A DNA stretch of 64,000 nucleotides from an uncultured virus (IMG/VR IMGVR_UViG_2894484731_000002) (IMGVR_UViG_2894484731_000002); one strand, 5' to 3'. Positions 3,604-41,031 are shown, counted from the first letter of the stretch. The notes: generated by a model from the sequence alone, not told the origin. Numbers and translations: made by a program.

Positions 3604-4629
3604 CTAAAGGCCAGCGCCGCGCATCGGGTTGTTGCGCCGCTTGTCGACGGCGCGGATGTAGCGCAGCACCACCGACGAGCCGGGTTTCCACCGCCCGTGC
3701 TCGGTGATCGCCGACATGGGCGCGCGTTCCGCGTACGCCCAGCTGGCGCCGGTCGCGCGCAGCGAATGCGCGGTGACGTCCTCCGCGCCGTCGATGCCCG
3801 CCCGGACGGCCAGGCCCCGGATGATGTCGTTGACGGCGTCGCCGCCGAGCGACGGCCCCACCCGGTGGTTGCGGTAGAAGCGGCGCAGCAGCCGGCCGCC
3901 GGTGTGGCCGTGTTCGGCGAGGAACGCCGTCCACTGCCGCCACGCCCCGACCGGGTCGGTCAGCGGGTGCTCCCCGGGCGGGATGTAGACGGTCTCGCCG
4001 TGGGCGTCCTGGTCGGTCTTGCTGTGCCGGATCAGCACTTCAAGCTCGCCGTCGACCACGCGGACGTCGTCCTGGAACAGGGCGATGAGCTCCGACCGGC
4101 GGCCCATCAGGGCGACGCCCAGGTCCAGGACCAGCCTGTCACGCCACCCGGCCGGGTCGTCGGGGCACACCCCGGCCATCGCCCGGACCTGCTCGATGGT
4201 GAGGACGGGGGCCTGCCGCTGGTTGCGGCGGCCGCTCTTGGCCCGCCGCTGGCGGTAGCCGCGCAGCGCGAGCGCGGCGCCCTCCCGGTCCGGCTGCCCC
4301 TTGTACCCGGCGGTGCGGTGGCAGGTGCGGATCGCCGCCATGGCCTGCTCGATGGAGACGGGGGCCAGGCCCCGCGCGCACATGTCGGTGACGTACTCGG
4401 TGAAGGTGTGCGGGGTGGCGGGCAGCGGCACCCGGCCGGTGTGGGCGCACCAGTCCTCGAAGTCCCGCCAGTGGCGGGCGTAGGCGCGGCGCGTTTCGTC
4501 GGCGACACCCTCCGCGATCAGTTCGCGCGCCTCGTCGCCGAGTGCGAAGTCCGTGTCGGTGTAGACAGGTTCGGGGCGGGTGCGCGCAACGTCACGGCTG
4601 GGTCGTATGACCAGCTGTGCGTCACTCAT
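3604..4629 (-). CDS. tyrosine recombinase/integrase (Cre-like, N-terminal core-binding domain)
   Basis: TRRAYARHW N-terminal motif; catalytic R (GRRSEL), K (HSKTDQ), HSLR, GRW, Y (VLRY). Confidence 0.92.
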   Translation of the reverse strand: MSDAQLVIRPSRDVARTRPEPVYTDTDFALGDEARELIAEGVADETRRAYARHWRDFEDWCAHTGRVPLPATPHTFTEYVTDMCARGLAPVSIEQAMAAIRTCHRTAGYKGQPDREGAALALRGYRQRRAKSGRRNQRQAPVLTIEQVRAMAGVCPDDPAGWRDRLVLDLGVALMGRRSELIALFQDDVRVVDGELEVLIRHSKTDQDAHGETVYIPPGEHPLTDPVGAWRQWTAFLAEHGHTGGRLLRRFYRNHRVGPSLGGDAVNDIIRGLAVRAGIDGAEDVTAHSLRATGASWAYAERAPMSAITEHGRWKPGSSVVLRYIRAVDKRRNNPMRGAGL

Positions 4630-13170: not shown

Positions 13171-13184
13171 CCTTATTGGATTGG

Positions 13185-14657
13185 ATGATGAAAGGCTACA
13201 CAATAAGCCGCCTCAAGCTGCAGGGAAAAATAGGTTCGCATCGCTGCACTGTTTTCGCTATGTCTACGGCAGCCGCCGTCATTTATTCGACTCTAGGTTT
13301 AGTGAAGTTCTTCACCTATCGCACGGGGATATACGACCTCGTTATTTTCGATCAGGCCATACGTGGCTACTCGCGATTCACCGTGCCCGGATCCTATGTG
13401 AAGGATCAATGGAACCAGCTTGGAGAGGCTGTTTCGATTCTCGGTGACCATTTCTCGCCGATTTTGGCAACGCTGGCTCCGCTCTATTGGATATACGACG
13501 GCCCGCAAACACTCATTGTCGCCCAGGCCGTATTATTTGCAGCAGCCGCGCCGTTCTTGTGGGTGTTTACGTATAGAAAATTTGGGCGTGGTTGTGCCTA
13601 TTTTGTCAGTATGGCATATTTGCTGTCTTGGCCGATAGCGGAAGCTGTGGCCTTTCATTTTCATGAGTATGCGTTTATGCCTGTACTCACGGCGGTACTG
13701 TTTGAGCGCATGCAAGCAGCCAAGCCCTGGCATGTGGTGGTCGTCACCTTGTTGATCCTTCTGGTCAAGGAGGATATCGGCTTCTTTGTCATGGGCTTAG
13801 GCTTGGCGCTTCTATGGAAGCGGGAGTGGCGATGGATGGGGGTATCTTTTATCGGTCTTGGGCCTGTGGCAGTTTGGGCTACAAGTCAAGTATTGATTCC
13901 GGCCTTCGGTGGCGCATCGGATCGATACTGGTACTACAGTGAACTTGGGGGTAGCCCCAAAGCGGCTGTGATTCACATGCTAACGGACCCAATGAATGCA
14001 CTCGAACTCCTTTTTACTCCTAGTGCCAAAGTGGCCACGTTAGTCCTGCTGCTAGCCCCGCTGCTTTTTTTGTCATTAGCGTCTCCGTACTTCTTTGCTC
14101 CGATGATGCTGCTGTTGGAGCGGATGTTAGCCAGTGACCAGCCAGGATGGTGGGATACTCACTATCATTATAATTCGGCGATAATTGTAGCTCTGCTGTG
14201 TGCTGCTGTTGATGGTGCGGAGAGGCTGATTCGATGCGCCTCGCAGCGCATGCCCCAATTAGGCGGAAAGCGGAGACTGGGCTTGATATGGGGTGCGGCT
14301 AGCTTTTCCTGCACACTGGCCTTTGTCCCTTTTTTTGCGCTGGGAAACTTGCTTAGCCCCAGCTGGTATCAGAAGACTGAGCGTGATCACGCGGCGGACG
14401 CAGCAATCGCACTAGTGCCGGATGGGATCCTTGTGGAAGCGGCCAACCAGCTGGGGCCAAATCTATCGTCCCGAACGAAGGTTGTAATATGGCGAGAGAT
14501 GCCGCGTAGGGCGCCTTGGGTAATTGCCGATATCCACTCGCCTCAGCCCATGTTTCCCTCCCTGAAAGAGCAGTGGGAGGACATTGAAAACTTGCAAAGG
14601 AATGGTTACCGCATACTCTTCTGGCGGGAAGGATACGTCGTTCTTCACCGCGACTGA
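13185..14657 (+). CDS. DUF2079-like multi-pass membrane protein (GT-C-like putative glycosyltransferase)
   Basis: YDLVIFDQA, LGDHFSPIL, FHFHE, LLVKED, HYHY motifs; many TM helices. Confidence 0.8.
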   Translation: MMKGYTISRLKLQGKIGSHRCTVFAMSTAAAVIYSTLGLVKFFTYRTGIYDLVIFDQAIRGYSRFTVPGSYVKDQWNQLGEAVSILGDHFSPILATLAPLYWIYDGPQTLIVAQAVLFAAAAPFLWVFTYRKFGRGCAYFVSMAYLLSWPIAEAVAFHFHEYAFMPVLTAVLFERMQAAKPWHVVVVTLLILLVKEDIGFFVMGLGLALLWKREWRWMGVSFIGLGPVAVWATSQVLIPAFGGASDRYWYYSELGGSPKAAVIHMLTDPMNALELLFTPSAKVATLVLLLAPLLFLSLASPYFFAPMMLLLERMLASDQPGWWDTHYHYNSAIIVALLCAAVDGAERLIRCASQRMPQLGGKRRLGLIWGAASFSCTLAFVPFFALGNLLSPSWYQKTERDHAADAAIALVPDGILVEAANQLGPNLSSRTKVVIWREMPRRAPWVIADIHSPQPMFPSLKEQWEDIENLQRNGYRILFWREGYVVLHRD

Positions 14658-14770: not shown

Positions 14771-17554
14771 TCAGCGACGGCGGTCGCCAATGTTGCGCCC
14801 GTACACCCCGGCGGCGCTGGGCCCCTGCGGGGTGGGGCGGTTCGGCAGCGGCGCGTGCACGATCGCCCCGCCGGTGATGTCGGGCAGCAGCCCGAACGCC
14901 AGATATACCGACGCGTCGATCCGGCCGGGGCTGTCCGGGTCGGTTGGCATCCACGTCGACCATTCAGCCTCCAGGTCGTGGAACGCGCCGGCGAGCCGCA
15001 CCCGGTCCAGCTTCATCTGCTGCGCGATCGGCTCGGCGCGCAGGAGTTTGCCCTGGCGGGCGCGCAGCGCCTGCACCATCGGCGGCAGCTCCCGCGCGGG
15101 GATGCGGCCTTCCCGCTGCAGCGCGTCCCACGACGTGGCGATCGCCAGCTCGCACATGTCGCCGCCGTAGTTGTTCTCCACGAAGATCACCGACGCACCG
15201 GTTTCGTGCACGAGCAGGCACGCCTCCATGGACCACTCCGTGGACGACATGACGCCGGACCGGTCGTGGGTGATCCACACCCGCTGGTCGTCGCCCAAGA
15301 ACCCGCCGATCACACCGGCGGTGTCGCGGCCGCCGCCGGACGGGTCGACGGCGACGGCCACCCGCTGCGGCTGCACCCCCGCCGGGTTGGCGCGGATGGT
15401 GCGCAGCAGCTCGGCCGACACCAGCGCCCCCTCCACCGGCTTGGGGTCGCCCTGCCCGAGCGCGTGCCAGTCCCGCACGATCGACGTGCGTTTCATGTCC
15501 GACCACCAGGCCAGCAGCGCAGCCCGGTCACGGGTGCGGATCTTCGGGTGGGGCAGCGGCTCCCCGGGGGCGCGGCCCAGGGGGTCGGGCCCGAACTTGG
15601 GGTCGGCGATGGCGGGCAGGTGCAGGACCTTCCACCGGCCGCCTTCATCCAGGCGGCCCTCCTCGGCCAGGCGGCGGCCCGCCAGGTCGTCGCAGTTGTG
15701 CACCAGCACGCCGCCCGCCACGAAATCCCCGGTCGGCGTCTGCAGGTCGTACACCGGCCCCTCGTAGTGCGTGGCCTCGATCGACTTGACCCGCACCCAC
15801 AGACCGCTGTCGTCGGCGCGGATGTGTCGGTTGCCGCCGCCGGGGTGGTAGCGCAGCTCGTGCGGCGCGCCGCCACCCGACCGCATGATCGACGCGGCGA
15901 TGCCGTGCTGGGCCAGCAGCGTCTGCATGTCCCGCAGTAGTCGGAAGCTCGACGACGTGACCCGCTTCCACCCATCCCGGTTCCCGGAGGAGCGGTACTC
16001 GCAGCCGTCGCCCAAGGTCCAGCCGTCGATCAGGGCCAGGGCGTGCTCTCGTGGCAGCCGATGCGCCCAGTCGGGCAGCTGCTTTTTCGTCGCACCGAGG
16101 CCGAACTGCTTAAGCAGGTTGGCGAGCTGGGCGCTGGACACCGTGACGACGGCCGTGCGCTGGGAAGCGTTGGCCCAAGGGGACTGTTCGGGGTCCCCGC
16201 GTAGGTTCACCGCCGCGCGCAGCCCGTGGCGGCCCAGCACCTCCCGCACGTGCGCGGCGTGCGTGTCGCGCTCGTGCTCCCCGAACGACCAGCGGCAGAC
16301 ATTCAGCCGGTCCTTGTCTCTGCCGTACGTCAGGGTGCCCTCGGCGACCCAGTAGCCGACGACCCTCCAAAACTCGGGGTCGTGCACGCAGGCCAGGTCG
16401 ATCACGTTGCCCGCCGGGCGAGTGACGCCCAGCACCCGCGCCCACTCGTACGCGGCGGACCGGGTCTTGCTGCCGTACCGCTCGGCGATCTGCTGGTAGG
16501 TCATCCCGGCGGCTAGGTGGACCTCCATTTCCTCGCGGGTCAGCGGCGCGTTGCGGACGCGGGTCGACCTCGCAGGGTCCCGCCGAGGCGCGGGCGGCGA
16601 TGGCAGCAGGGCCGCCAGTTCCTCCGCCGTCATCTCCGGCCGCCTGCGGGCGGGCAGCAGCAGCCAGTCGAGCCGCTGCACCTGCCGGGCCTCGCGCCAC
16701 CCGTGCTCGGTCCACACACGGTGCTCGGGCGTGACCTGCAGCGTCTCCGGCGAGCCGTAGAACGCCAGGGTCAGCGTCTCGCCGTTGTGCAGCCGCGCCG
16801 CGGTGGCGACGACGGGTTGGTATCCGTCGCTTGTCAGGACCAGCTCACCGGGCTGGATGTCGCTGACCGGCTTGTCTCCCAGCACTGTACTCACACGTTG
16901 ATTCTCTACCAGGCAGTGCCATCGCGTCAGGATAATGACGACGGCGTTGCGGTCAGGCTGGAGCCGTTTCAACGCGGTCGAGGAGTACCAGTCGTGGACC
17001 CGCTGCCGGGACCGGACCGACTCCGCGTCCTTCCGGTCCTTGTGCGGGTCATCAATGACCAGAAAGTTGACAGAGAATCCTGTTAGTCCGCTTCCCACCG
17101 AAACGGACCGGACGCCGCCGCCGGTCCGCAGGTTGTAGTCGTGCGACGCGCCCGAGCCGGGCCGCAGCACCAGCCCGAACTCCTCCCCGTACTCCTCGAT
17201 GTACGCCTTGACCGCCTTGCCTCGGCGCAGCGCCAGGTCATCGCTGTAGGAGGTGATTGCGACGTTGTCCCGGGCGTGGAGGCACAGCCACCAGTACGGC
17301 CCCCACTCCGCGACAGAGGTACTTTTCCCGACCTGCGGCGGAGTGATCACAAGGAGCCGGTCGTACTCCCCGGCCTCCAGCCCCGCCATCGCGTCGCCAA
17401 TGACCCGCAGGTGCGGCCGCATGTGCCACGTCGGGTCCAGGGCCCGCGCCAGCGTCACCGGGTCCCGCAGGATGTCCTTACGCAGGGCCTCCTGGGCGGC
17501 GAGCAGTTCCGCCAGGGCGGCCTCGTCGTCCAGGTGGTCCAGCCCGCCGGTCAA
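14771..17554 (-). CDS. phage terminase large subunit containing an intein
   Basis: Walker A PPQVGKST, GSGLTG, Walker B LVIDDP, TRWH..DDL coupling motif, nuclease AVDPS...D and SPGRIDA motifs. Confidence 0.92.
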   Translation of the reverse strand: MTGGLDHLDDEAALAELLAAQEALRKDILRDPVTLARALDPTWHMRPHLRVIGDAMAGLEAGEYDRLLVITPPQVGKSTSVAEWGPYWWLCLHARDNVAITSYSDDLALRRGKAVKAYIEEYGEEFGLVLRPGSGASHDYNLRTGGGVRSVSVGSGLTGFSVNFLVIDDPHKDRKDAESVRSRQRVHDWYSSTALKRLQPDRNAVVIILTRWHCLVENQRVSTVLGDKPVSDIQPGELVLTSDGYQPVVATAARLHNGETLTLAFYGSPETLQVTPEHRVWTEHGWREARQVQRLDWLLLPARRRPEMTAEELAALLPSPPAPRRDPARSTRVRNAPLTREEMEVHLAAGMTYQQIAERYGSKTRSAAYEWARVLGVTRPAGNVIDLACVHDPEFWRVVGYWVAEGTLTYGRDKDRLNVCRWSFGEHERDTHAAHVREVLGRHGLRAAVNLRGDPEQSPWANASQRTAVVTVSSAQLANLLKQFGLGATKKQLPDWAHRLPREHALALIDGWTLGDGCEYRSSGNRDGWKRVTSSSFRLLRDMQTLLAQHGIAASIMRSGGGAPHELRYHPGGGNRHIRADDSGLWVRVKSIEATHYEGPVYDLQTPTGDFVAGGVLVHNCDDLAGRRLAEEGRLDEGGRWKVLHLPAIADPKFGPDPLGRAPGEPLPHPKIRTRDRAALLAWWSDMKRTSIVRDWHALGQGDPKPVEGALVSAELLRTIRANPAGVQPQRVAVAVDPSGGGRDTAGVIGGFLGDDQRVWITHDRSGVMSSTEWSMEACLLVHETGASVIFVENNYGGDMCELAIATSWDALQREGRIPARELPPMVQALRARQGKLLRAEPIAQQMKLDRVRLAGAFHDLEAEWSTWMPTDPDSPGRIDASVYLAFGLLPDITGGAIVHAPLPNRPTPQGPSAAGVYGRNIGDRRR
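15695..16915 (-). mobile_element. intein (407 aa) with LAGLIDADG homing endonuclease and an HTH-like insert
   Basis: Starts CLVENQRV; block B VTPEHRVW; LAGLIDADG-like VVGYWVAEG and LIDGWTLGDG; ends VYDL...VLVHN with +1 Cys; exteins rejoin as TRWH|CDDLAGR. Confidence 0.93.
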
Positions 17555-17555
17555 C

Positions 17556-18131
17556 CTACTCGCCGTCGTCGTCTTCGTCGCCGGCTGCGCGGGCGCGGCG
17601 GGCGACGTCCTGGGCGAGTTCGGCCAGGTGGGTGCGCCGCTGCTCCGGCGGCAGCTCCCGGAAGCGGGTGAGTGCCACCTGCAGGCGGCCGCCGTCCTCG
17701 GTGACCTCCACCTTCGACGTGGTCCCGGCGTGCAGGTCGGTCATGGCGTCGCGTTCGACCCGCACGCCCAGCTCCCACAGGCGGACCAGTTCGGCGACGG
17801 TCAGCTTGGCCGGGTCGAGCTCCAGCAGCCGTTGGGCGGCCTTGGACTGGGCGAGCTGCGCGGTGCGGATCTGCCGCTCGGCTGCTTTGCGGCGGGCTTT
17901 GGCTTGTTCCAGCAGCCACTGCTCTTCAAGGTGCCGGTCGTAGGCGGCGACCCGCTCCGGCCACTTGTGGGTCGAGCCCCAGCGGGCGATCAGCGTTGCA
18001 CTCTTGCCCAACTGGCGCGCAACGTCGCGGTAGGACCTCTCGGTCGCTGGCATGTCCCGGTATGCGGCGAACGCCTCGAACGCGGGGGCGGATTCGTCGT
18101 TGCGCCGCTCCCACGGCTTAGGGCTGTCCAT
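17556..18131 (-). CDS. terminase small subunit-like protein
   Basis: PWERR.DES..AFEAF..YRDM...RS...VARQLGKS..LIARW...W.ER..AYD N-terminal HTH; directly upstream of TerL. Confidence 0.75.
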   Translation of the reverse strand: MDSPKPWERRNDESAPAFEAFAAYRDMPATERSYRDVARQLGKSATLIARWGSTHKWPERVAAYDRHLEEQWLLEQAKARRKAAERQIRTAQLAQSKAAQRLLELDPAKLTVAELVRLWELGVRVERDAMTDLHAGTTSKVEVTEDGGRLQVALTRFRELPPEQRRTHLAELAQDVARRARAAGDEDDDGE

Positions 18132-19125
18132 CGGCGGGCTCGCTCGGGTCGTCGTCGTCGGGCAGGGTGATGTGGTGTGCGTCGGCGTACGCGGCGAACA
18201 CCTCCTCGACCAGCCTGTGGCGGGTGCTCTTGGTGACCGTGTTGCGGGCCAGGGCCTCGTCCACCACCGTCTGGATGACCGCCGCGGTGCGGGGCGGGAC
18301 CAGGGCGGTGCCCAGCAGCTCGGCCAGCGGGGTGTGGGCGTGCGGGTCCAGCTCGTCGGGGTCGGCGCCGTCCAGGCCGAGGGCTTGGGCGGTGGTGGTG
18401 ATGATGCGGGACACCACGGTTGACAGGGCGCGGGCGTCGTACTCGCGGCCGATGCGGCGGGTGAGGGCCTGCCACTGCTCGTACAGGGACCGGTCGACCA
18501 GGTACAGGTGGTCGCGGTCCAGGTCGACCTGCTCGGTGATCTGCTTGACCGCTGTTTCGAACTGGTCGGCCTGGTGCGGCAGGAACGTGATCAGCACGGT
18601 GCGGTAGGCCAGGTCGAGGTCCAGGTTCGGCAGGCTCACCCTCGGCGGAATGATCTCGATGTCGGGTGGGGTGACGAACGCCTCCAGCCGGGCGTCCACG
18701 TCGCTGATCTGCGCGTAGATCCGGGCGACGATCTGCTCCTCCGACTGGCCGTGGATCGCGTTGTGGGCCAGTTGCTTGGCCTTGACCTGGTCGGCGGTCA
18801 GGCCGGTGATGTCGACGATGGTCCACACGTAGGCGACGCCGGCCGCGCGGGACGCCCTCACGCGGTGGTGCCCGCTGATGATCTCCAACCGGTCGTTGAC
18901 CATCCCGCACAGGGGCAGGGATTCCAGGCGGCCGTCCCGGCCGATGGTGGCCGACAGCCGCTCGAACATGGCCGGGGGCATGGCCTGGGCGTTGAGTTCC
19001 TGCTCGTGCAGGTCGTCGACGTGGACGCGCCACAGCTCCAGGCCCTGCCCGAGGTCGAGCACCCGCTCCGGTGGGCGCCGCTCCTCCGCCTCGTCGGCGG
19101 CAGTCTTGCTCTTCGTGGTGGGCAT
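18118..19125 (-). CDS. ParB/Srx-like N-terminal domain protein
   Basis: ELNAQAM...LESLPL...EIISGHHRVRA...QLAHNAIHG; TGATG overlap with the upstream gene. Confidence 0.8.
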   Translation of the reverse strand: MPTTKSKTAADEAEERRPPERVLDLGQGLELWRVHVDDLHEQELNAQAMPPAMFERLSATIGRDGRLESLPLCGMVNDRLEIISGHHRVRASRAAGVAYVWTIVDITGLTADQVKAKQLAHNAIHGQSEEQIVARIYAQISDVDARLEAFVTPPDIEIIPPRVSLPNLDLDLAYRTVLITFLPHQADQFETAVKQITEQVDLDRDHLYLVDRSLYEQWQALTRRIGREYDARALSTVVSRIITTTAQALGLDGADPDELDPHAHTPLAELLGTALVPPRTAAVIQTVVDEALARNTVTKSTRHRLVEEVFAAYADAHHITLPDDDDPSEPADGQP

Positions 19126-20639
19126 CAGGCGGGTTCCCCTTCCGTGACGGCCGGCTGCTGCTGGGTGGAGGCTCCGCGGCCTTTGCGTTTCTTCCGCCGC
19201 TGCCCCGTCGCGGTGGGTTGGGGGAGGCGGGGGCCGTCCCAGCCGGGGCGGCAGACCCAGGCCTGTTCGGCGTGCCAGCGGCGCATCACCTCGGGCAGGG
19301 TGTCGGTGCGGAACTCGCCCTGGTACAGCAGCTGGAACCCGCCGCCGGGGCGGGGCTCGCGCTTGGCGAGCTTCATCACCCCGCGGTCGGTCTTCCCCTC
19401 GTGGTTGATGGTGGGGGACGCGGTGGAGATGCCGACGATCTCCGCCTGCTGCAGTCGCGGGTTGTTGGCCAGCACCCACCGCTTGAAGTCCCCGCTGGTG
19501 AGCGCGAGCATGAACAGTTTGCCGAGGCGGGCGTACCTGGCGGAGGTGACGGTGATGCCGAACACCTCGCCGACCCAGCCGGAGTTGCCGAGCCGGATGT
19601 CCCTGGTGTGCAGGCCGAACGCCGTGGTGACCCGGCCGTCGATCAGCATGAGGCAGTACCGTTCCGCCTTGGTCAGGCCGAGCCGGTGCACGAACAGGTC
19701 CCGGTAGTGGAGGCAGGTGTCTTTGTCGACCTGCTCGAAGCTGATCACGGACTCTGGGGTGATGTCCTGGTCGGCGTAGACGGGCCACTGGCGGGGCGGC
19801 CCGCCGAGGCCCTTGCGGACGACCAGGCGGTCCCCGGGGTCGCGGTTGCCGATGATGTAGTCGACCCGGTCGGGGCCTGCGGCGAACGCGCCGAGCTTCA
19901 CCCAGTCCGGCGGGGCCTGGTCGTCGCCGTGGTGGACGTAGGCGGCGGCGAACACCGGGGACTCGGTGAAGGAGTCGAGCCACATGCGGGCGTCGGCCGG
20001 GTCGAACTCTTCCGCGATCAGCCGGCAGGCCCAGATGCGCGTTTCAGCCGCGCCGTACTGCTTGGAGTACCCACCCTTGTACCCGGGGAGATTTGCGTAG
20101 AAAAAGGTGTTTTGCGGGTCGGGGGCGGCCAGGGCGTCGTTGATCACGTCGCGGACGTCGGCGACGTCGTACCGGCAGCCCCGCATCAGGTCGACCTGCT
20201 GGCGCAGCCCGTCGGCGAGCTTGTCCCGGATCGCGGCGGCGTTGCGCCACATCTCGGTGCGCAGCTCCTGGGCGTGGGTGTTCTTCGGCGGCGTCGACAG
20301 GAACTTCACCGTCAGCAGGACCCCGGCGGCGTGCTCGTGCTCGTCGCGGGCCCCGGCGGTGAAGCGGGCCAGGTCGCCGGGGATGCGGACCTCCAGCTCC
20401 TCCAGGGTGTGGCGGGGGTCGGCGAGGTAGCCGACGATGGAGGAGAACAGGCACAGGTCGGACGCCTCGACCCGCTCCGGGTGGCCGTGCTTGGCGACGA
20501 TCGCCGTGGCCGTCGACCAGCGGCCGACGCACGGCAGCACCCACCGGTGGTGGCGGGCGGGGTCGACCAGGGTGGCGACGAACTCGCGGGCCGGGGAGAT
20601 GTCCAGCCCGGCGAACAGGAGGGTTGCGGGGCCGGCCAA
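19125..20639 (-). CDS. putative antirestriction adenine methyltransferase-like domain fused to a GNAT (Mom-like) domain
   Basis: TTG start after GAGGAGG SD; degenerate motif I (VLPCVGRWS, EASD); motif IV variant FYANLPGYKGGY; C-terminal ~170 aa (HYRDLFVH...LIDG...RYARLGKLF...RGVMKL...LLY) read as GNAT-like by eye. Confidence 0.65.
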   Translation of the reverse strand: MAGPATLLFAGLDISPAREFVATLVDPARHHRWVLPCVGRWSTATAIVAKHGHPERVEASDLCLFSSIVGYLADPRHTLEELEVRIPGDLARFTAGARDEHEHAAGVLLTVKFLSTPPKNTHAQELRTEMWRNAAAIRDKLADGLRQQVDLMRGCRYDVADVRDVINDALAAPDPQNTFFYANLPGYKGGYSKQYGAAETRIWACRLIAEEFDPADARMWLDSFTESPVFAAAYVHHGDDQAPPDWVKLGAFAAGPDRVDYIIGNRDPGDRLVVRKGLGGPPRQWPVYADQDITPESVISFEQVDKDTCLHYRDLFVHRLGLTKAERYCLMLIDGRVTTAFGLHTRDIRLGNSGWVGEVFGITVTSARYARLGKLFMLALTSGDFKRWVLANNPRLQQAEIVGISTASPTINHEGKTDRGVMKLAKREPRPGGGFQLLYQGEFRTDTLPEVMRRWHAEQAWVCRPGWDGPRLPQPTATGQRRKKRKGRGASTQQQPAVTEGEPA

Positions 20640-20681
20640 CGGGACCTCCTCGGGGGTGGTGCTGCTGGCTCCCGGCGGGGG

Positions 20682-20754
20682 TGGTCCGGCGGGCAGGTAG
20701 TGAGCCTGCACCTCCCAGCGGAAAAGCTGGGTGAGCTACTTGCTCCACCGCCGG
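20682..20754 (-). ncRNA. non-canonical tRNA-like RNA (73 nt, encoded CCA)
   Basis: Minus strand folds as CCGGCGG UG GAGC-AAGUA-GCUC A CCCAG-CUUUUCCG-CUGGG AGGU GCAGG-CUCACUA-CCUGC CCGCCGG A CCA; all four stems are fully Watson-Crick. Confidence 0.85.
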
Positions 20755-20920
20755 TCGCTTTCGGGCAGGTCACACCATAGATCCCGGCGCCGCCTATGCG
20801 GGGGCGGTGCAACGTCCGGGCGGTCGATCATGGGGAAGTCTTGACCTTCGCCAGTGCCCGGGTGGGGCGGTCACCGCCCGCACGGGGTGCGGGGGTGGCC
20901 GCCCCTGCCCGGCCTGTGGG

Positions 20921-21367
20921 TCAGAACAGGCGCGGCTCGGGGGCGGGGGAGACCTCCGGCACGTCCCAGCCGAGCCGGTCGGCGAACCAGTTCGCCGCCC
21001 ACGTGCGGTGGCACGCGTCCCCGGCGTGGACGTCCTCATAACAGAGCAGGACCAGGGTGCGGCCGGGGTGGGCGTCGGCCAGGGCGCCGAGCGCGGCCAG
21101 GACCTCCTCCCGTTTGGAGTCCAGGCGGCGGTAGAACGCCGCCTCCTTGACGTCCATCGGCTTGCCCTCGAACTCCGGGGCGTTGAAGATCCCGAACGGG
21201 GCGAGGGCGGCGACGAACTCGTATGGGTGGCGGAAGAACCGGGGGCGGCCGACGGTGATGCGGACGGCCACCCCCATGTCCCGGGTGTACGTCTTGAAGC
21301 TGCACGTCGCCAACGGCGGCTGCCCCGCCGGTGCGTCCGGCGGGGCCTCGGGCGGGTGTTCGGTCAT
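20921..21367 (-). CDS. DUF488-like protein
   Basis: VRITVGRP...LAP...LVLLCYE...CHR...A.W pattern. Confidence 0.65.
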   Translation of the reverse strand: MTEHPPEAPPDAPAGQPPLATCSFKTYTRDMGVAVRITVGRPRFFRHPYEFVAALAPFGIFNAPEFEGKPMDVKEAAFYRRLDSKREEVLAALGALADAHPGRTLVLLCYEDVHAGDACHRTWAANWFADRLGWDVPEVSPAPEPRLF

Positions 21368-21440
21368 CGCGGGTTGTTGTCCTTTCGTGTGCGGGTGGTC
21401 CGCGGCCCGGGGCGGGTGTCCGCCCCGGGCGCGCGGCGGG

Positions 21441-21995
21441 TCAGATGAGGCCGCCCTGCACGGCGTACCAGCGGCCGAGCTCCCACGTGTACTGGTCGTG
21501 CTGGCCGTTGTCGACGACCTCGGCCTCGGGGGAGTAACCGCCGTCGGTGCGGACGGCGTACGCGGCGCAGGACACCGTGCTGGTCCCGCGGATCTCGGCC
21601 TGCGCGGGCGCCATCACGTACCCCACGTAGTAGCCCTTGCGGGCGTCGTTGGCGCGGGCGCGCTTGGCGTCCTGCGCCTTCGACGGGGTGAACCAGGTGC
21701 CGGTGATGCGGCCGCGCTCGTCGAGCAGGGCGAAGTACACGCCCCACTGGCCGGACATGAGCTTGGCCGGGACCAGCCGGCCGGCCGTGTCGAACAGGGC
21801 GGGGAACAGGGCCTTGCCGCCCGCCTCCTCGATGGACGCCTGCAGGCGCAGCTCCTGGGCGACGACGCCGTGCGCCCACTGGGAGACGAACCCGTCGGTG
21901 TCGCAGTCCTCGTACGACCTCTGGGCCTTGGCGTCCTCGGCGGCGGCCTGGGCGCGCAGCTCCTCGGCGGTCGTCGCGGTGGCGGTGGCGGTCAT
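21441..21995 (-). CDS. hypothetical protein
   Basis: ATG with GAAGGG SD, below a repeated promoter box; contains SYEDCDTDGFVSQWA. Confidence 0.75.
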   Translation of the reverse strand: MTATATATTAEELRAQAAAEDAKAQRSYEDCDTDGFVSQWAHGVVAQELRLQASIEEAGGKALFPALFDTAGRLVPAKLMSGQWGVYFALLDERGRITGTWFTPSKAQDAKRARANDARKGYYVGYVMAPAQAEIRGTSTVSCAAYAVRTDGGYSPEAEVVDNGQHDQYTWELGRWYAVQGGLI

Positions 21996-22020
21996 GTCGG
22001 CGTCCCTTCATCGTTCCCTT

Positions 22021-22054
22021 ATATCTTTATAATAGCCTGCACTTATCTAGATAC
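22021..22054 (-). promoter_or_regulatory. ATATC-N24-GATAT box, copy 1
   Basis: ATATC tttataatagcctgcacttatcta GATAC. Confidence 0.75.
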
Positions 22055-22139
22055 AAGAGGACTGGCGGAAGTTTCCGCAGCTCAGCGGGTGTGGGGGCGG
22101 CGCGTACCCCCGGCCCAGCGGGCAGGGACGGCGGGCCGG

Positions 22140-22412
22140 CTACTCGCGCCGGGTGTCCCATACCACGGTGACCCGCCACCGCCCCGGCTGCAGCGGGTTG
22201 GGGTCGGCGGTGACCTCGGCGTGCCGCAGGTCGTCCTGGTAGTCGTGGTGGATCCACGCCAGGACCCGCTGCTCGGCCTCCACGCCGCTGCCGGCGTCGA
22301 CCGTGTAGAACGACCGGTGAGTGCCGTAGTCGTCGCCCTCCTCGCCCAGCTTCTCGGCGTGCCACCGGTTGACCGGCACCTCCGGGAGCAGGGAAGCGAA
22401 GCTCGTCGCCAT
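22140..22412 (-). CDS. hypothetical protein
   Basis: ATG with AGAAAGG SD. Confidence 0.65.
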   Translation of the reverse strand: MATSFASLLPEVPVNRWHAEKLGEEGDDYGTHRSFYTVDAGSGVEAEQRVLAWIHHDYQDDLRHAEVTADPNPLQPGRWRVTVVWDTRRE

Positions 22413-22490
22413 GTCGGCTCGGTTCCTTTCTGTCGGGTTACAGGGGATGTGGTGGGCGGCCGCCCCCGCTCGGGGGCGGCCGCCGCGCCG

Positions 22491-23588
22491 TCACCAGGTG
22501 GAGACCAGCAGGGTCGACACCTGGGCGTGGACGACCTTGAGGGCGTCCTGCGTCTCGCCGAGGCTGGTGGCCAGCATCCGCTCGTGCTCGTCGGCCTGCT
22601 TCTGCAGCTCCTGGAACCGCTTCACCAGGCCCTGCATGTGCGCCTCGGTCGCGCCGTCGCGGTTGGCGGTGGCGATGTCGGCGGCCAGCTTCTGCAGGTC
22701 CTCCTTGGCCTTGGTGGTGATGGCCCGCACCACCATGTCGCGCTGCTCGGCGGTGTCGGGCAGCGGCACCCGCACCAGCTCGCTGTCCCCGCCGAGCCGG
22801 TCGACCAGGCCCTTGAGGGCGTCAATGGCCCCGTCGTGGTAGCGGTGCACGAAGTACACCCCGCCCGACGGGCGGACCTTGACGGCGCTCAGGCCCTCCA
22901 CGTAGGTGCGGACCACCGCGCGCAGCCGGTCGGTGGTGTAGTAGCGGCAGGCCTGCGCGTACGTCTCGCGCACCTCGTCGAGGACGGCGCGGACCTTGGC
23001 CTGCTCGCTTTCGCACAGCAGGGCGATCGCCGTCTCGTTCGGCTCGATGTTGAGGACCCCGGCGCCGGGCACCCCGGTCTGGGCGGGGTCGCGCCAGAAC
23101 TCGATCGTGGCGAGGCGCGGGTCGTACTCGAGCTCCGAGGCGTTTTCGTCGCGGACCTCGCGGACCAGGTTGCGGACCAGCTTGTTGTCCTCGCGGGACA
23201 CGTGCCGGATCATCAGCGTGACGCCGAGGGTGCGGCTGTCGTCGTCGCGGCGGTTGCGGCGGCGGGTCGTGGTCACGGGGGCCTCGCCGTGGGCGTGGGC
23301 CAGGCGGTAGGAGGCGTGGACGCCGCGCGGGCCGGTGATCTGCTCGAACGCGTCGATCTGGCGGATCGCGGGGGGCAGGAACGTCTCGTCGAGGCCGAGC
23401 TGCCGGAACCACAGCTCCAGCTGGTCGCGGCTGACGGGGGCCTGTGGCTCGAACACCGAGTACCACAGGATGTGGCCGAGGTGCGGGGCGTCGGCCATGG
23501 CGGCGGTGAAGGCGTTGAGCCCGGCCAGGGTCTCGACGGTGCCGCCCTGCTCGGCGGGGGTGGTCGCGGCGGGGGTGGGGGTGTTCAT
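22491..23588 (-). CDS. DUF6744-like protein
   Basis: LGHILWYSV...VSRDQLELWFRQLGL...VRPSGGVYFV; coiled-coil C-terminus; next to the AAA/vWA pair. Confidence 0.6.
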   Translation of the reverse strand: MNTPTPAATTPAEQGGTVETLAGLNAFTAAMADAPHLGHILWYSVFEPQAPVSRDQLELWFRQLGLDETFLPPAIRQIDAFEQITGPRGVHASYRLAHAHGEAPVTTTRRRNRRDDDSRTLGVTLMIRHVSREDNKLVRNLVREVRDENASELEYDPRLATIEFWRDPAQTGVPGAGVLNIEPNETAIALLCESEQAKVRAVLDEVRETYAQACRYYTTDRLRAVVRTYVEGLSAVKVRPSGGVYFVHRYHDGAIDALKGLVDRLGGDSELVRVPLPDTAEQRDMVVRAITTKAKEDLQKLAADIATANRDGATEAHMQGLVKRFQELQKQADEHERMLATSLGETQDALKVVHAQVSTLLVSTW

Positions 23589-24004: not shown

Positions 24005-25615
24005 TCAGATCAGGCGGAACAGGTCGCGCGGGGTGTCCAGGTCGGCCAGGCGGGCGACGTGCCGCAGGTTGTCGCACAGGTCGGCCAGGACCTGGCCGGG
24101 GGTGTGCTGCACCGCCACCCCGAACACCCGGAAGCCGAGGGCGGCCTTGCGCTGCTGCCAGCCCTCCAGCCACTCGGCGGGCACCCGGGTCTCCCCGTCG
24201 GTGATGAGCACGATGTCGCCGTTGCGGACCGCCTCCCCGTTGGCGGGCTCGGCCAGGATGTCGGCGGCGGTGTCGAGCGGCTGGGGGAAGCTGGTGCCGC
24301 CCCGCAGGAACGTCTCCCCGAACTCCAGGACGTCGGCGATGGGGCCGCGCCCCTTCGGGAAGTGGAACACCCGCTGGCTGCCAGGGCCGGAGAACAGGAT
24401 GCCGACGAAGTCGCGGCCCTCGCTGCGGGCCTGGTCCAGCAGGGACAGGGCGGCGGCCTTCGCCCACGCCTCCCGGGTGATGCCGCCCTCCTCGTGGTCC
24501 ATGCTGGTGGAGGTGTCGACCAGCGCGATGATCGCGCCCTTCCCGGCGGGGGCGTCGCCGCGCGTCTCGTACGTCAGCAGGCGGCCCTCGGCGAGGCGCA
24601 CCGCGAAGTCGGCGCGCAGCGCGGGCACCGCCAGGTTCGCCAGCTCCGAGGGGACCAGCTTGGACGGGTCGGAGCCGAGGGCGACGCCGACCAGCTCCCC
24701 GGCGGCGTTGTTCACCCGGTGGGCGCGCTCACCGGCCGCCATCTGCCGGAACCTGCCGATGAGGTGCGCGAACCGGGACAGGCGGTGCCCGCGCAGCGCC
24801 TGCGCCAGCTGGGCCCGCTCGTCGAAGCTCATGCGCTGCAGCTCGCCCGGCTCCAGCCCCCACCCGGCGGCGAGGGCGGCGTCCTGCCCGGCCTGCTCCG
24901 ACGCCTGCTGGGCGGCGGCGCGGGCAGCCGCCCGCACCCCCGGCGCGGCCTGGTCGAGGGCTTTCGCCGCCTGCTGCGCGGCCTGCTGGGCGGCGGCGTC
25001 GGCCTGCTGGGCGGCGGCGACGGCGGCCTCCACCGCGTCGGCGGCGTCCTGCGTCGTCGCCTCCCCGTCCCCGGCCTGCTCGGCGGCGTGCATGGCGTCG
25101 GCGATGTCGGCGGCAGCCTGCGCCGCCTGCTCGGCGGCGTCCTGCGCGGCGCGGGCCGCCTCAGCGGCTTCCTTGGAACGCTCCAGTATGGTGCGCAGCG
25201 CGTCGCCCTGCGCCAGCACCGCCATCGCCGAGGCGTACGCGTCGCCCACGGTGTGGCGGCGCAGCTCCGCGAAGTCGGGGGCGTCCAGCAGGGACGCCAC
25301 GACCTGCCGGTTGACGTGGCGGGACGGGTGGACCTGGTCGGCGGGCAGCACCTCGGGGAACGCCCGGAAAGCCGCCGTCCACGCGTCGCGCACCAGGTCC
25401 TCGGTGTAGTCGTGCTCGGTGTTCAGGTCCTCGGCGAGGGCCCGCAGCGCGGCCGCCTGCCCCCAGGTGTCGCGCCAGGTCATGTCGTCGAACCGGTCGC
25501 AGGTCACGACCCGCACACCCGGGGCAGCGGCGGGGGCGGGGGTGGCCGCCGCCAGGCCCAGCCAGCGGCCGGCTGTAGCGGCGAGGTCCTTGAGCTTGGC
25601 GGTCAGTCGCATCAC
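24005..25615 (-). CDS. vWA domain protein (ViaA-like partner of the AAA ATPase)
   Basis: MIDAS DTSTSM, GGTSF and VLITDGE motifs. Confidence 0.88.
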   Translation of the reverse strand: MMRLTAKLKDLAATAGRWLGLAAATPAPAAAPGVRVVTCDRFDDMTWRDTWGQAAALRALAEDLNTEHDYTEDLVRDAWTAAFRAFPEVLPADQVHPSRHVNRQVVASLLDAPDFAELRRHTVGDAYASAMAVLAQGDALRTILERSKEAAEAARAAQDAAEQAAQAAADIADAMHAAEQAGDGEATTQDAADAVEAAVAAAQQADAAAQQAAQQAAKALDQAAPGVRAAARAAAQQASEQAGQDAALAAGWGLEPGELQRMSFDERAQLAQALRGHRLSRFAHLIGRFRQMAAGERAHRVNNAAGELVGVALGSDPSKLVPSELANLAVPALRADFAVRLAEGRLLTYETRGDAPAGKGAIIALVDTSTSMDHEEGGITREAWAKAAALSLLDQARSEGRDFVGILFSGPGSQRVFHFPKGRGPIADVLEFGETFLRGGTSFPQPLDTAADILAEPANGEAVRNGDIVLITDGETRVPAEWLEGWQQRKAALGFRVFGVAVQHTPGQVLADLCDNLRHVARLADLDTPRDLFRLI

Positions 25616-25648
25616 GCGTCTCCAATCATCTCGGGAAGGGGAAGGGGG

Positions 25649-26887
25649 TTAGAGCTGGCTGACGGTGGCGCGGGCCACGGCGGCGGGCATCTGCAGCGCC
25701 TCCGTCATGATCTTCACGAAGACGCCGGTGTGCCGCTGCATGACCTCCTCCAGGGTGGCGGTGGACCGGCCCGCCTTCGCGGAGTCGGCGTGCAGCTCCT
25801 GCAGCTTCTTCCCGGCCGCCTTGAGCTTTGGCATGGCCTCCTGCATCGCCCAGGTGCTGATCTCGTTGGTGGACTTGCCCTGCAGGGCGTCCAGCTGGGC
25901 GTTCAGCTCCTCCACGGCGTCCCGCAGCTCCAGCGCCTCCCGGGCCGACGGGTTGACCAGGTTCAGCACCTCCTTCTCCACGGTGGGCCGCGTCGCCGGG
26001 CTGTCCCACAGGGCGTGCGCGAGGACCGCCAGGTCGTTCGTAGCGACCTCGGCGCGGCCGTCCAGCCAGGCGTGGGCCTGCAGCAGCCGGACGATCTGCC
26101 GCCACCGCCGGTCCGACGGCACCAGGCCCTCGTGGCGGAGCGCCGCCCGCAGCGTGACCACCGCGTCGATGATCTGGTCGGGGACGCCGACCGCGGGGAC
26201 GTGCACGCCGACGGCCGCCTGCAGGTCCGTCAGCAGGACCCTGGTGCGGGACGCGGCCGGGGCCGAGCTGGTCCGCAGCAGGTCCGCGAACCTGGTGGCG
26301 TCCTGGATGTAGTCGACCTCGACCCGGACCAGCAGCCGGTCATAGATCGCGGCGGACTCCGTCGCCGTCGGCAGCTCGTTGCTGGCCGTCACCGCGCTGA
26401 TCAGCGGGCAGGGGATGGGGGCGCCGCCCGCCTCCGGGTGGTACACCCTCTCGTTGAGGAACGCCAGGAGGGCATTCAGGGACGCGGGGGAGCACTTGAA
26501 GATCTCGTCGATGAACGCGATGTGCCCCGTCGTGGCCCGGCCGTCCCACACCTGCTCGTAGCGGCCCTGCATGAGGGCGGCCACGTCGATCGGGCCGAAC
26601 ATCGCCGTCGGCGCGGTGTAGGCGTTCAGCTGGATCTCCCACAGGCGGGCGTCCTGGATGCGGTCCGTCAGGTCGCGGGCCAGCTCCGACTTGGCGGTGC
26701 CGGGCGGGCCGATCAGCAGGGAGTGCTGCTGGGCCAGCATCGCGGCGACGATCGCCCGGATGGCGCTGGACCGCTCGTGGTACGTCGCGTCGAGCTCGGC
26801 GACGATCTGCCGCAGGCGGGCCGAGGTGACCGAGCCGTCGCCCGGGTCGGCGGGGGCGGCGGCGGGGTGGGCGGCGGTCGTGGTCAT
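25649..26887 (-). CDS. MoxR/RavA-like AAA+ ATPase
   Basis: Walker A GPPGTAKS, Walker B FIDEIFK, ASNELP, AIYDR, SDRRW. Confidence 0.92.
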   Translation of the reverse strand: MTTTAAHPAAAPADPGDGSVTSARLRQIVAELDATYHERSSAIRAIVAAMLAQQHSLLIGPPGTAKSELARDLTDRIQDARLWEIQLNAYTAPTAMFGPIDVAALMQGRYEQVWDGRATTGHIAFIDEIFKCSPASLNALLAFLNERVYHPEAGGAPIPCPLISAVTASNELPTATESAAIYDRLLVRVEVDYIQDATRFADLLRTSSAPAASRTRVLLTDLQAAVGVHVPAVGVPDQIIDAVVTLRAALRHEGLVPSDRRWRQIVRLLQAHAWLDGRAEVATNDLAVLAHALWDSPATRPTVEKEVLNLVNPSAREALELRDAVEELNAQLDALQGKSTNEISTWAMQEAMPKLKAAGKKLQELHADSAKAGRSTATLEEVMQRHTGVFVKIMTEALQMPAAVARATVSQL

Positions 26888-26926
26888 CGGTACTCCTGTC
26901 AGTCGGGGGATCACCAGATCCAACTT

Positions 26927-26960
26927 ATATCTTAAGAATAGTCTGCACTGCTACTGATAT
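26927..26960 (-). promoter_or_regulatory. ATATC-N24-GATAT box, copy 3
   Basis: ATATC ttaagaatagtctgcactgctact GATAT. Confidence 0.75.
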
Positions 26961-27902: not shown

Positions 27903-29117
27903 TCAGCGGCGCGCGGCAGCCACCAGGGCCGTCTCGGCGGCCTCGTCGAGCGGCGGCGCCATCACCTGGCTGGTGTCCGCCCGGGCGGCCAGCTCGACGG
28001 CGCGGCGGGCGGCGGCCAGCACCTCCGCGGTGCGGGCGCCGGCCCGGGCCGCCAGCGTGGCGGCCGTCCACGGTGTTCGCGCCTTCCCGGATTTGGTGAC
28101 GCCTTCGCCGCGCGCTTGCGGGGTGGCGGCCAGGCGGTCGCGGACCAGCCCGTACAGCAGGAGCGCCGCGTCCGCCGCGGCGGGGTCGCCGGCTGCCTCG
28201 GCGCGGGCGGCGTCGAGCCCGGCCAGGATCTCGCCCATCGACAGCCGCTCGGTGAACGGCTGCCCCAACTCGAGCTCCGCCGCGCGGTAGTCAGCGGCTA
28301 GGGCGGGCCGCAGCGCGGCGGCCAGCATCAGATCCTCCAGGCTCGCCAGGACGCACAATGCGCAGGAGAGGCGGGCGAGGCCCCAGCTGTACCCGGCGTG
28401 GGGGCGCAGCCCGGCGCGGCGGATCTCCGCCCACACCTCCGCGATCGACCAGCCGTGGATGGGCAGCCACCGGGTGATGGTGCGGTTACGCGACGACTGC
28501 CGCCGGTCCACCTGCAGAAGCGGCTGGGCGGCGCGGCCCGGCGACTCCTGGGCGCGCAGCCCGAGGCAGTACAGCACGGGCACCGGCTGCCCGGCCGGGA
28601 TGCGTTCAGCGGCGCGGACCTCGGCGACCGCCCGGGTCACCCAGGCCATGGCGGGGCCGGTCTTCTGATCGCTGGTGCAGAAACGCGCGTTGTTGCTCAT
28701 CCAGCGGCGGCGCTGCACCAGCACCTGGTGCCACAGCCCGCCGCCGTTGCGGGTGACGGTGACGAACTCCAGCCCGTAGGCGGCGGCGTGCTCGCGGGCG
28801 GCGGCCTCCACCCCTGGCCACTCCACCGGCTCGCCCGAGCCGGTCACCCCGAGGTGGTTGTGCAGCACGACGACCCGCCCCCGGTAGTCCTGCTCCTCGA
28901 TGAGGCGGCAAACGTGCGCCAGCATGGCCAGGGAGTCCTTCCCGGCCGAGGTGCACACCACGATCAGGCGGTAGGCGTTCAGGTCCGGCGCCGCCCCGCC
29001 GGAACACGCCGGCCCCCGCCGCCGAGGTGGCGGCAGGGGCAGGGCTGTTTGGACCAGCCCGGCTGCCGGGCGGGCACGCCCCGGGTTACCGACCCGCACC
29101 CCGCGCCGGGCGGTCAC
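27903..29117 (-). CDS. PAPS-reductase-family (PP-loop, Fe-S) protein
   Basis: TSAGKDS PP-loop, RFCTSDQK, GLRAQES..R, WLPIHGW, RLSCALC; GTGA-coupled start. Confidence 0.88.
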   Translation of the reverse strand: MTARRGVRVGNPGRARPAAGLVQTALPLPPPRRRGPACSGGAAPDLNAYRLIVVCTSAGKDSLAMLAHVCRLIEEQDYRGRVVVLHNHLGVTGSGEPVEWPGVEAAAREHAAAYGLEFVTVTRNGGGLWHQVLVQRRRWMSNNARFCTSDQKTGPAMAWVTRAVAEVRAAERIPAGQPVPVLYCLGLRAQESPGRAAQPLLQVDRRQSSRNRTITRWLPIHGWSIAEVWAEIRRAGLRPHAGYSWGLARLSCALCVLASLEDLMLAAALRPALAADYRAAELELGQPFTERLSMGEILAGLDAARAEAAGDPAAADAALLLYGLVRDRLAATPQARGEGVTKSGKARTPWTAATLAARAGARTAEVLAAARRAVELAARADTSQVMAPPLDEAAETALVAAARR

Positions 29118-29359
29118 CGGCACTGCTCGCGCCACCACACCTCCACGGGCACCGGCCCATCGCACGTCACCGTGTACGCGGGGTCACCCAGGCGGGCCTG
29201 GTAGGTGGACCCCGCCCACTCCCCGGCGCGGACGTGCCAGATCAGGTGCCCGTACGGGCAGACCACGCTGACCCCGCCGCCGCGTAGGCGGCGCACGATC
29301 GGGCGGGCGGCGTGCGGGCGCGGCAGGCCGGGGTCGCCCAGCAGCGACAGCTGGCTCAC
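29114..29359 (-). CDS. hypothetical protein
   Basis: Translationally coupled small ORF with CPYGH. Confidence 0.6.
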   Translation of the reverse strand: MSQLSLLGDPGLPRPHAARPIVRRLRGGGVSVVCPYGHLIWHVRAGEWAGSTYQARLGDPAYTVTCDGPVPVEVWWREQCR

Positions 29360-40945: not shown

Positions 40946-40997
40946 GAAACGCTCCTTTGCGTCACCGGTCGCGGCGGGGGCCGCAACACGAAAGGTC

Positions 40998-41031
40998 ATA
41001 TCAGAAACGTAGTGGACTGCTGTCTAGATAT
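40998..41031 (-). promoter_or_regulatory. ATATC-N24-GATAT box, copy 12
   Basis: ATATC agaaacgtagtggactgctgtcta GATAT. Confidence 0.7.

Follow-up and report, generated by a model that had tools for sequence, protein, structure and literature searches.

A tRNA-like RNA that has kept its cloverleaf and lost its decoding features was found upstream of a gene for a two-domain protein in a 64,000-nucleotide (64 kb) stretch of DNA from an uncultured virus (IMGVR_UViG_2894484731_000002). The whole stretch is referred to here as the window. The protein joins an N-terminal domain resembling the DNA adenine methyltransferase Dam to a C-terminal domain of the GNAT fold, and the RNA accompanies the same type of enzyme gene in actinobacterial prophages, in one Faecalibacterium phage, and in many viral contigs from soil and sediment. 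With moderate confidence, I propose that the RNA is a phage-encoded, non-decoding tRNA derivative kept as a dedicated aminoacyl carrier, which would serve a Mom-like, tRNA-dependent acylation of DNA bases before packaging.

The window RNA lies on the minus strand, and every structural detail given in the first-pass annotation of this DNA can be read in the sequence. The acceptor stem has 7 bp (CCGGCGG/CCGCCGG, thus a C1-G72 pair) and is followed by U8-G9. A 4-bp D stem (GAGC/GCUC) closes a D loop of 5 nucleotides (nt), AAGUA, which lacks GG. The anticodon stem has 5 bp (CCCAG/CUGGG) and an 8-nt loop, CUUUUCCG. The variable loop is AGGU (4 nt), the T stem is GCAGG/CCUGC, and the T loop is CUCACUA. 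The discriminator is A (A73), and CCA is encoded at 20681-20679. In the minimum-free-energy (MFE) fold, the 76-nt RNA forms this cloverleaf, with stems of 7/4/5/5 bp and an energy of -37.7 kcal/mol. Shuffled sequences average -27.6 kcal/mol (z -3.44), and none of 200 reached the energy of the RNA. C32 and G38 also pair in this fold, giving a 6-bp stem and a 6-nt loop. ARAGORN reported 20682-20754 on the minus strand as the sole tRNA of the window, naming it 'tRNA-???' with a 4-base anticodon, tttc; a pseudo or undetermined call had been anticipated. The Rfam tRNA model RF00005 found nothing at E<=10 in a 4-kb search (19000-23000). Because the cloverleaf has a z of -3.44 and the RNA is left unnamed by ARAGORN and missed by Rfam, it is a real structure beyond chance and a non-canonical one. 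It departs from a canonical decoding tRNA in that its anticodon loop does not have 7 nt, positions 32 and 38 at the loop ends pair, the D loop has no GG, and the T loop is not UUCRANY.

Is the RNA a regular companion of the enzyme gene? The fusion protein of the window is identical over its 504 residues to a database entry, P0001, and 141 protein relatives were found at E<=1e-5, nearly all of which have both the PF22555 and the PF22559 domain. A profile was built from 39 aligned relatives, and profile scans with it retrieved 38 viral and 80 metagenomic loci. A single-protein scan of the viral contigs, where the profile scans did find loci, gave no match. In a phage collection, the Faecalibacterium phage FP_Brigit was the sole protein match, and there was no DNA match. 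In the only close genomic relative, L001 from Nonomuraea salmonea (72% identity), the site of the window RNA is occupied by a tRNA with a 7-nt loop, which ARAGORN calls 'tRNA-Glu ctc'. The T arm and the acceptor stem are identical in the two RNAs, while the D stem (GACC/GGUC in L001 vs GAGC/GCUC in the window) and the anticodon stem (CCCGG/CCGGG vs CCCAG/CUGGG) differ by compensatory changes. At about 4885-4900 of L001, a C run that is one C longer than in the window shifts the frame of the Dam-like/GNAT orthologue near residue 290, which reflects either a draft-assembly error or a pseudogene.

More distant relatives repeat the arrangement. Three actinobacterial genomes (L010, L011, and L012; 28-30% identity) have a tRNA-like gene directly 5' of the enzyme gene, and FP_Brigit (26% identity) has a tRNA-Lys ctt directly upstream, with the order enzyme, ParB-like, small terminase subunit (TerS), and large terminase subunit (TerL) as in the window. 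Thus, a tRNA-like gene is directly upstream in 5/5 full-length genomic or phage relatives (L001, L010, L011, L012, and FP_Brigit). L013, which matches the GNAT part only, has no upstream tRNA-like gene. The tRNA-like genes of L010 (1369-1461) and L011 (3079-3171, minus strand) have canonical D and T loops, but their anticodon loop is exchanged for a 24-nt insert that forms a GNRA-capped hairpin, and the CCA position reads CUA. The anticodon loop of L012 has 6 nt. Among 98 eligible metagenome and viral loci, ARAGORN detected a same-strand tRNA just 5' of the gene in 21, mostly tRNA-Glu ctc/ttc. A covariance model, R1, was built from 24 upstream tRNA-like sequences; the window RNA scores 71.5 bits with it. 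R1 counts were made over 103 loci that have 120 nt or more of upstream sequence, leaving aside 15 further loci without usable upstream sequence. A match lies at most 400 nt upstream in 54 of these loci and 1.3-2.2 kb upstream in 7, so the RNA is genetically coupled to the GNAT gene in 61/103 overall. No match was obtained in 42/103, 24 of which have less than 2.3 kb of upstream sequence. When both strands of about 650 kb were searched with R1, there were 0 opposite-strand matches and a single downstream match, an ordinary-looking tRNA-Gln in L130. To see whether the RNA also occurs without the enzyme, viral contigs were searched with a D-arm pattern. Among the 10 loci obtained, 2 held a tRNA-like sequence, and in one of these the enzyme gene was no more than 2.5 kb away; such a pattern is too unspecific to count. 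In the viral contig L149 (2501-2576), a tRNA-Glu ctc of canonical appearance (A1-U72, A73, CCA) has no Dam-like/GNAT gene within 2.5 kb.

The distant and missing RNAs are not scattered evenly. In a quick tree of the GNAT domain with 82 rows, the RNA is distant or missing in 16 rows, and 12 of these belong to one tight clade of 31 rows. In L072 (297-2003), a locus of this peat/sediment clade, three open reading frames (ORFs) stand between the RNA and the enzyme gene, encoding a 122-aa protein of unknown type, an 8xMP-like membrane protein, and a HAD hydrolase. The RNA of L072 is still directly 3' of a DUF488-type gene, the kind of gene that precedes the RNA in the window as well; the equivalent ORF end of L072 has a weak PF22751 (DUF488-N3a) match that is under the cutoff (E 0.005). 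Tandem pairs of tRNA-like genes with differing anticodon loops were observed 5' of the enzyme gene in L042 (1519-1591 and 1602-1674) and L049 (2296-2374 and 2390-2464).

Several loci are near-duplicates, and 51 sources yielded 53 distinct RNA sequences for the family counts, with 22 host tRNAs from three actinobacterial genomes as a control. In a structure-blind MAFFT alignment (A2), 94.3% of the cells are paired, compared with 62.0% for column shuffles (0/500 reach the observed value) and 41-50% for slid controls, and both sides have changed in 21/22 pairs. Thus, the covarying cloverleaf that had been predicted upstream of homologous genes was found, and it is under selection. The decoding features are not. 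U33 is present in only 14/34 seven-nt loops vs 22/22 host tRNAs, purine-37 in 21/34 vs 22/22, and a Watson-Crick 32-38 pair in 25/34 vs 2/22. Seven-nt anticodon loops occur in 34 RNAs and 8-nt loops in 14; of the remaining five RNAs, two have loops of 6 nt, two of 24 nt, and one of 10 nt. A canonical T loop was found in 21/53 RNAs vs 21/22 host tRNAs, and the gathering score of the Rfam tRNA model was reached in 7 of the 20 loci submitted. G1 occurs in 0/53 RNAs (C 24, A 20, U 9) vs 16/22 host tRNAs; correspondingly, positions 1 and 72 form C-G in 24 RNAs and U-A in 9, and the other 20 have an A.G mismatch. A73 is found in 33/53 and an encoded CCA in 30/53. As a family, the RNAs have lost decoding features and kept the acceptor end, in line with the intact stems and remodelled loops first described for the window RNA. 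In L070, L071, L075, and L019, the T loop is swapped for a 9-20 nt insert, and the acceptor and D arms are kept.

These counts bear on the simplest alternative, that the RNA is an ordinary translation tRNA, or a +1 frameshift suppressor for late genes with its 8-nt loop and 4-base anticodon UUUC, and that its position is accidental. ARAGORN does give a 4-base anticodon, some relatives look fully canonical (the tRNA-Lys ctt of FP_Brigit, and the 7/20 loci passing the Rfam score), and the N. salmonea enzyme gene has a +1 frame change. However, a decoding tRNA is hard to reconcile with U33 in 14/34, 32-38 paired in 25/34, G1 in 0/53, and loops of 6, 8, 10, or 24 nt in 19/53. The L001 RNA has a 7-nt loop despite the frame change, the change itself is due to one additional C within a C run of a draft sequence and not to a GAAA site, and no accompanying tRNA was found at the loci apart from the one in L130. 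I consider a decoding role extremely unlikely.

Some features have been retained in addition to the stems. The variable loop has 4 nt in 46/53 RNAs, and most relatives keep a UCGUCUA...GGAC D arm that resembles host tRNA-Glu genes. By a tally of triplet counts, the seven-nt loops have C34 in 28/34 and U35 in 31/34; their central triplets are CUC (15), CUG (9), UUC (3), CUA (3), UCC (2), and others (2). The kept pattern of D arm, C34-U35, and variable loop would suit recognition by a protein such as glutamyl-tRNA synthetase, going by the usual identity rules. A resemblance to Gly-UCC tRNAs had been proposed for the window RNA. Some lineages do have UCC or CCC triplets, and most relatives have a Glu-like D arm and CUC, UUC, or CUG triplets. 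On the three host genomes, R1 scored Gly, Met, Glu, Asn, and Val tRNAs all at 60-64 bits, with no separation of isoacceptors. In a crude global alignment, the host initiator tRNA-Met was nearest to the window and L001 RNAs (score 19), by a small margin on which nothing is built here.

Could the RNA instead be a cis-acting processing or regulatory element? As an uncharged substrate of RNase P/RNase Z, it could act as a punctuation mark in the late transcript, determine where the downstream mRNA begins or how stable it is, or keep early and late expression apart. Elements of this kind, such as mascRNA and tRNA punctuation, are cloverleaves without decoding inside longer transcripts, which the window RNA also appears to be. 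The RNA is always on the same strand as the gene and usually 0-100 nt before it, no terminator-like site separates the two in the window, and losing the anticodon, D-loop, and T-loop consensus would be harmless to a processing signal. In contrast to such elements, which have no tie to one enzyme family and do not conserve identity-type nucleotides, this RNA family is tied to one enzyme family across 25-76% identity and keeps C34-U35, the 4-nt variable loop (46/53), and the Glu-type D arm, none of which is expected of a cleavage signal. Moreover, the RNA is 1.3-2.2 kb upstream in 7 loci, and three ORFs including the HAD hydrolase intervene in L072. The first-pass annotation had offered a tRNA-mimic leader as its own alternative; the genes that come between the RNA and the enzyme gene in one clade weaken it, and I retain a cis-acting element as an unlikely rival to the carrier.

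The two domains of the fusion protein came out as expected. The gene starts with TTG at 20639 behind GAGGAGG, in agreement with the Shine-Dalgarno-supported start proposed for it, and the ORF is intact, with a GC content at third codon positions (GC3) of 0.95. Two Pfam domains exceed the curated cutoff of 27 bits: PF22555 (DAM-like-phage1) at 66.9 bits (E 2e-18) and PF22559 (GNAT-phage-like) at 65.3 bits (E 7e-18). An AlphaFold2 model based on the 39 aligned relatives (predicted local distance difference test, pLDDT, 88) has a Dam-fold domain at residues ~1-280 and a GNAT-fold domain at ~295-460. Foldseek matched residues ~1-280 to E. coli Dam, DpnM, and T4 Dam (4rtn, 2ore, 2g1p, 2dpm, and 1yf3) at E 1e-4 to 6e-4, with a TM-score to the target of ~0.5. 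Canonical Dam-type enzymes have a catalytic (D/N)PPY (DPPY) motif and an S-adenosylmethionine-binding FxGxG motif. In the window protein, the motif IV position reads NLPGY and the motif I position PCVGRW; the motif IV position varies among the 39 aligned relatives, with NPPGY, NVPTY, SVPHY, and DLHGL occurring in the family. As modelled, the N-terminal domain thus has the fold of the E. coli, T4, and DpnM N6-adenine DNA methyltransferases with a degenerate catalytic motif, in line with the degenerate adenine methyltransferase first suggested from the sequence.

The GNAT domain modelled alone has a pLDDT of 92 and matches 210 chains at Z of at least 5. In VIA-align, the top tie at Z 9.4 is between Mu Mom (8bv8_B, 143 residues, rmsd 3.7) and 3bln_A, an uncharacterised acetyltransferase; FemA follows at Z 8.2. 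In a Foldseek search with the domain, Mom takes rank 36 (E 6.5e-3). On the model, the predicted GNAT fold is certain, with Mom among the top structural matches, and Mom is not singled out by fold. Searching profile A1 against sequences of solved structures gave chance-level matches only. In CoA-binding GNATs, Q/RxxGxG/A in the beta4-alpha3 loop binds the pyrophosphate of coenzyme A (CoA). The family has a near-invariant SxRYxRLGK in this loop, the GNAT motif-A position, and Y312, R313, H318, and D334 are invariant in the family.

A partnership of another sort must be weighed here: the RNA might be the target or a structural partner of the enzyme and not a donor, with the protein modifying or sequestering tRNA and the RNA serving as decoy, antidote, or subunit of a ribonucleoprotein. 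tRNA-acting GNATs do exist, the TacT toxin and the tRNA acetylase TmcA being given in the main text of PMC13219725. Foldseek with the whole protein gave a weak match to TmcA (2zpa; E 2e-3, probability 0.38), and the tight linkage suits any RNA-protein partnership. Set against this, the structures matched by the N-terminal domain are DNA adenine methyltransferases crystallised together with DNA, and the ParB-like and terminase neighbours, in 76/92 loci, point to DNA. A decoy should mimic host tRNA, whereas the family RNAs diverge from it. A target or partner role seems improbable to me.

The carrier proposed here would belong to a late phage module, whose genes in the window are as follows, in the order of transcription.

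20921..21367, minus strand: DUF488-like upstream gene, 148 aa (phrog_2450, E 2e-9), whose stop is 166 nt before the RNA
20679..20754, minus strand: non-decoding tRNA-like RNA (ARAGORN, MFE cloverleaf, covariance model R1)
19125..20639, minus strand: Dam-like/GNAT fusion protein, 504 aa (PF22555 and PF22559; phrog_7858)
18118..19125, minus strand: ParB-like partner gene (phrog_7405, E 6e-48; ParB-like phrog_620, E 2e-9)
17556..18131, minus strand: terminase small subunit, TerS (phrog_6299, E 3e-18)
14771..17554, minus strand: terminase large subunit, TerL, with an intein (phrog_38, E 3e-65, in two stretches)

The ATG of the ParB-like gene overlaps the stop of the fusion gene as TGATG, and the start of TerS and the end of the ParB-like gene share a 14-nt overlap, so that the coupling to a ParB-like gene and then TerS/TerL, as first annotated, is borne out by these overlaps and the phrog matches. 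Pfam ParB_N matches the ParB-like product under the cutoff (E 0.02). A ParB-like homologue lies downstream in 76 of the 92 related loci with at least 900 nt of downstream sequence. On the other side of the RNA, a homologue of the upstream gene is present 5' in 29/93 loci (tblastn), and the DUF488-like C-terminal motif of its product also ends just before the tRNA-like gene in L010, L011, and L012; a Pfam search of the window product found nothing at E<=10. A promoter and terminator scan of 20400-21500 found no terminator-like and no sigma-70-like site. A TATGGT about 20 nt 5' of the RNA was spotted by eye and is unsupported.

The window has a GC content of 71.6%, and phage-type genes, all on the minus strand, run from 64000 down to 14771. 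The intein of TerL is ~400 aa long, with Pfam Intein_splicing and a LAGLIDADG_3 homing-endonuclease domain, and with Hint_2 under the cutoff. Directly past TerL is a low-GC segment (11-15 kb, 52-59% GC), in which a DUF2079 membrane protein is encoded (13176-14657, plus strand); a tyrosine integrase is at 3604-4629 (minus strand). The element also carries, all on the minus strand, a MoxR-type AAA ATPase with a VWA partner (24005-26935), two PAPS-reductase-like genes (27903-29165 and 47985-49193), and a DnaN sliding clamp (39263-40999) that has an N-terminal extension of ~200 aa.

How might the module work? The RNA would be transcribed on the same strand as the rest of the late module (DUF488-like gene, RNA, Dam-like/GNAT, ParB-like, TerS, and TerL) and excised by host tRNA-processing enzymes. 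A host aminoacyl-tRNA synthetase would then charge it, most relatives having a Glu-like body and some having Gly-like triplets; no phage-borne synthetase or ligase was recognised among 53 further ORFs of the window. The Dam-like domain, in which the methyl-transfer motif is lost, would bind DNA and present a flipped base, most likely adenine. Since its fold is that of a degenerate adenine methylase, such a base-flipping reader is plausible. The GNAT domain would take the aminoacyl group off the 3' end of the carrier and attach it to the flipped base, as Mu Mom does with host Gly-tRNA-Gly. The phage genome would be marked in this way just before packaging and might thereby be protected from host nucleases. 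A tentative extension, for which I would claim little confidence, is that the lineage-specific tRNA body (Glu-like mostly, with Gly-like triplets in some, Lys-like in FP_Brigit, and hairpin-armed in L010 and L011) sets the amino acid loaded by the host synthetase and hence the DNA adduct. The RNA would then be an exchangeable cofactor, and the dead methylase a base-flipping reader.

Several observations weigh against a carrier. R1 found no match in 18 loci despite at least 2.3 kb of upstream sequence, and a 15.4-kb provirus fragment of the 31-row clade has no such RNA anywhere. The elbow of a tRNA (D-loop GG and T54/A58) is normally read by processing enzymes and synthetases, and the window RNA has neither the D-loop GG nor the T54/A58 positions. 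Its D stem has also lost the Glu-like pairs kept by most relatives, which blurs its charging identity. Among sequencing runs, none of RNA was listed as containing the region, and soil metagenomes contained only small shares of it. As for the enzyme, ordinary acetyl-CoA GNATs (Z 8-9.4) are as close to the GNAT domain as Mom or FemA (Z 9.4 and 8.2). Nor is there a relation to Mom by sequence: hhalign (A4 vs Mu Mom) gave a probability of 0.1%, and the domain has no PF25680 match at E<=10, only PF22559, whereas Mu Mom itself matches PF25680 at 2e-75. Finally, the part of the window from TerL to the tyrosine integrase yielded no portal, capsid, or tail genes. The prophage may therefore be an incomplete, truncated, or interrupted remnant, although the ORFs of the module are intact.

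That last point raises the question of whether the window RNA is a relic, a family carrier tRNA that is decaying in a defective prophage and no longer functions. The absence of structural genes past TerL and the adjoining low-GC segment would fit such decay, as would the D and T loops of the window RNA, which are the most eroded of the family, and its lack of an Rfam match. On the contrary, the four stems are intact, and where the D and anticodon stems differ from those of L001, the changes compensate each other. Because L078, L093, L077, and L125 have the CUCAC-type T loop too, it is a trait of lineages and not decay peculiar to the window RNA. The ORF of the enzyme is intact as well, with its GC3 of 0.95. 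I regard a relic as very unlikely.

A functional carrier can be compared with known systems. Mu Mom, a GNAT, moves glycine from host Gly-tRNA-Gly to the N6 of adenine in double-stranded DNA for restriction evasion, and its essential residues are R111, S124, D149, and R151, together with a helix-turn-helix-like insertion (Silva et al., Nat Commun 2026, PMC13219725). The use of Gly-tRNA-Gly by Mom strengthens the analogy. Both proteins are phage-borne and of the GNAT fold, and the window domain superposes on Mom (PF25680; PDB 8bv8) as well as on any solved GNAT. The two differ in several ways. The window protein is outside the Mom family, its GNAT domain is fused to a Dam-like domain, and it is paired with a ParB-like gene and set before the terminase. 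Furthermore, Mom takes host tRNA-Gly, while the window module brings its own non-decoding tRNA. The main text of PMC13219725 has no mention of 'fusion', 'fused', 'methyltransferase', 'ParB', or 'phage-encoded tRNA', and its sole 'tRNA gene' passage concerns cloned E. coli genes. A jumbo-phage survey, in the portion available, mentions Mom-family GNATs fused to nucleases and not a tRNA-like/Dam-GNAT module.

A close parallel for the RNA is in Staphylococcus, where non-proteinogenic tRNA-Gly species used by FemXAB are diverted from translation and have an altered D/T-loop consensus. There, too, a tRNA serves a GNAT-fold aminoacyl transferase, and FemA is among the structural matches of the window domain. 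In contrast, the staphylococcal tRNAs are chromosomal, serve cell-wall synthesis, and have a normal Gly anticodon loop, while in the window family the anticodon loop is often destroyed, G1 never occurs, and the RNA is phage-borne beside the enzyme. The coupling expected of a carrier tRNA is seen in the genetic link of the RNA to the GNAT gene, whose product would use aminoacyl-tRNA. That such a carrier might be charged and yet kept from the ribosome or EF-Tu is hinted at indirectly by G1 in 0/53, the A1.G72 mismatch in 20/53, and the lost anticodon-loop consensus. As for PF22555 and PF22559, to both of which the window protein belongs, no paper naming them was found in the literature; they are defined in Pfam only, with no function on record, and the tRNA linkage is apparently absent from their Pfam descriptions. 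I also found no paper on the gene set of the module or on a phage carrier tRNA. I class the module as a variation on tRNA-dependent GNAT modification of DNA, outside the Mom family.

To my knowledge, Mom is the only enzyme known to modify DNA from a charged tRNA, and it borrows that tRNA from the host. If the proposal is true, the module would be a second, unrelated GNAT lineage with Mom-type chemistry, and its RNA would be the first phage-encoded non-decoding carrier tRNA. Such tRNA-like genes are missed or mislabelled by tRNA finders and Rfam. The family would then be well suited to testing how tRNA identity is recognised outside translation, and new DNA adducts would be predicted, which would defeat restriction enzymes and confuse sequencing.

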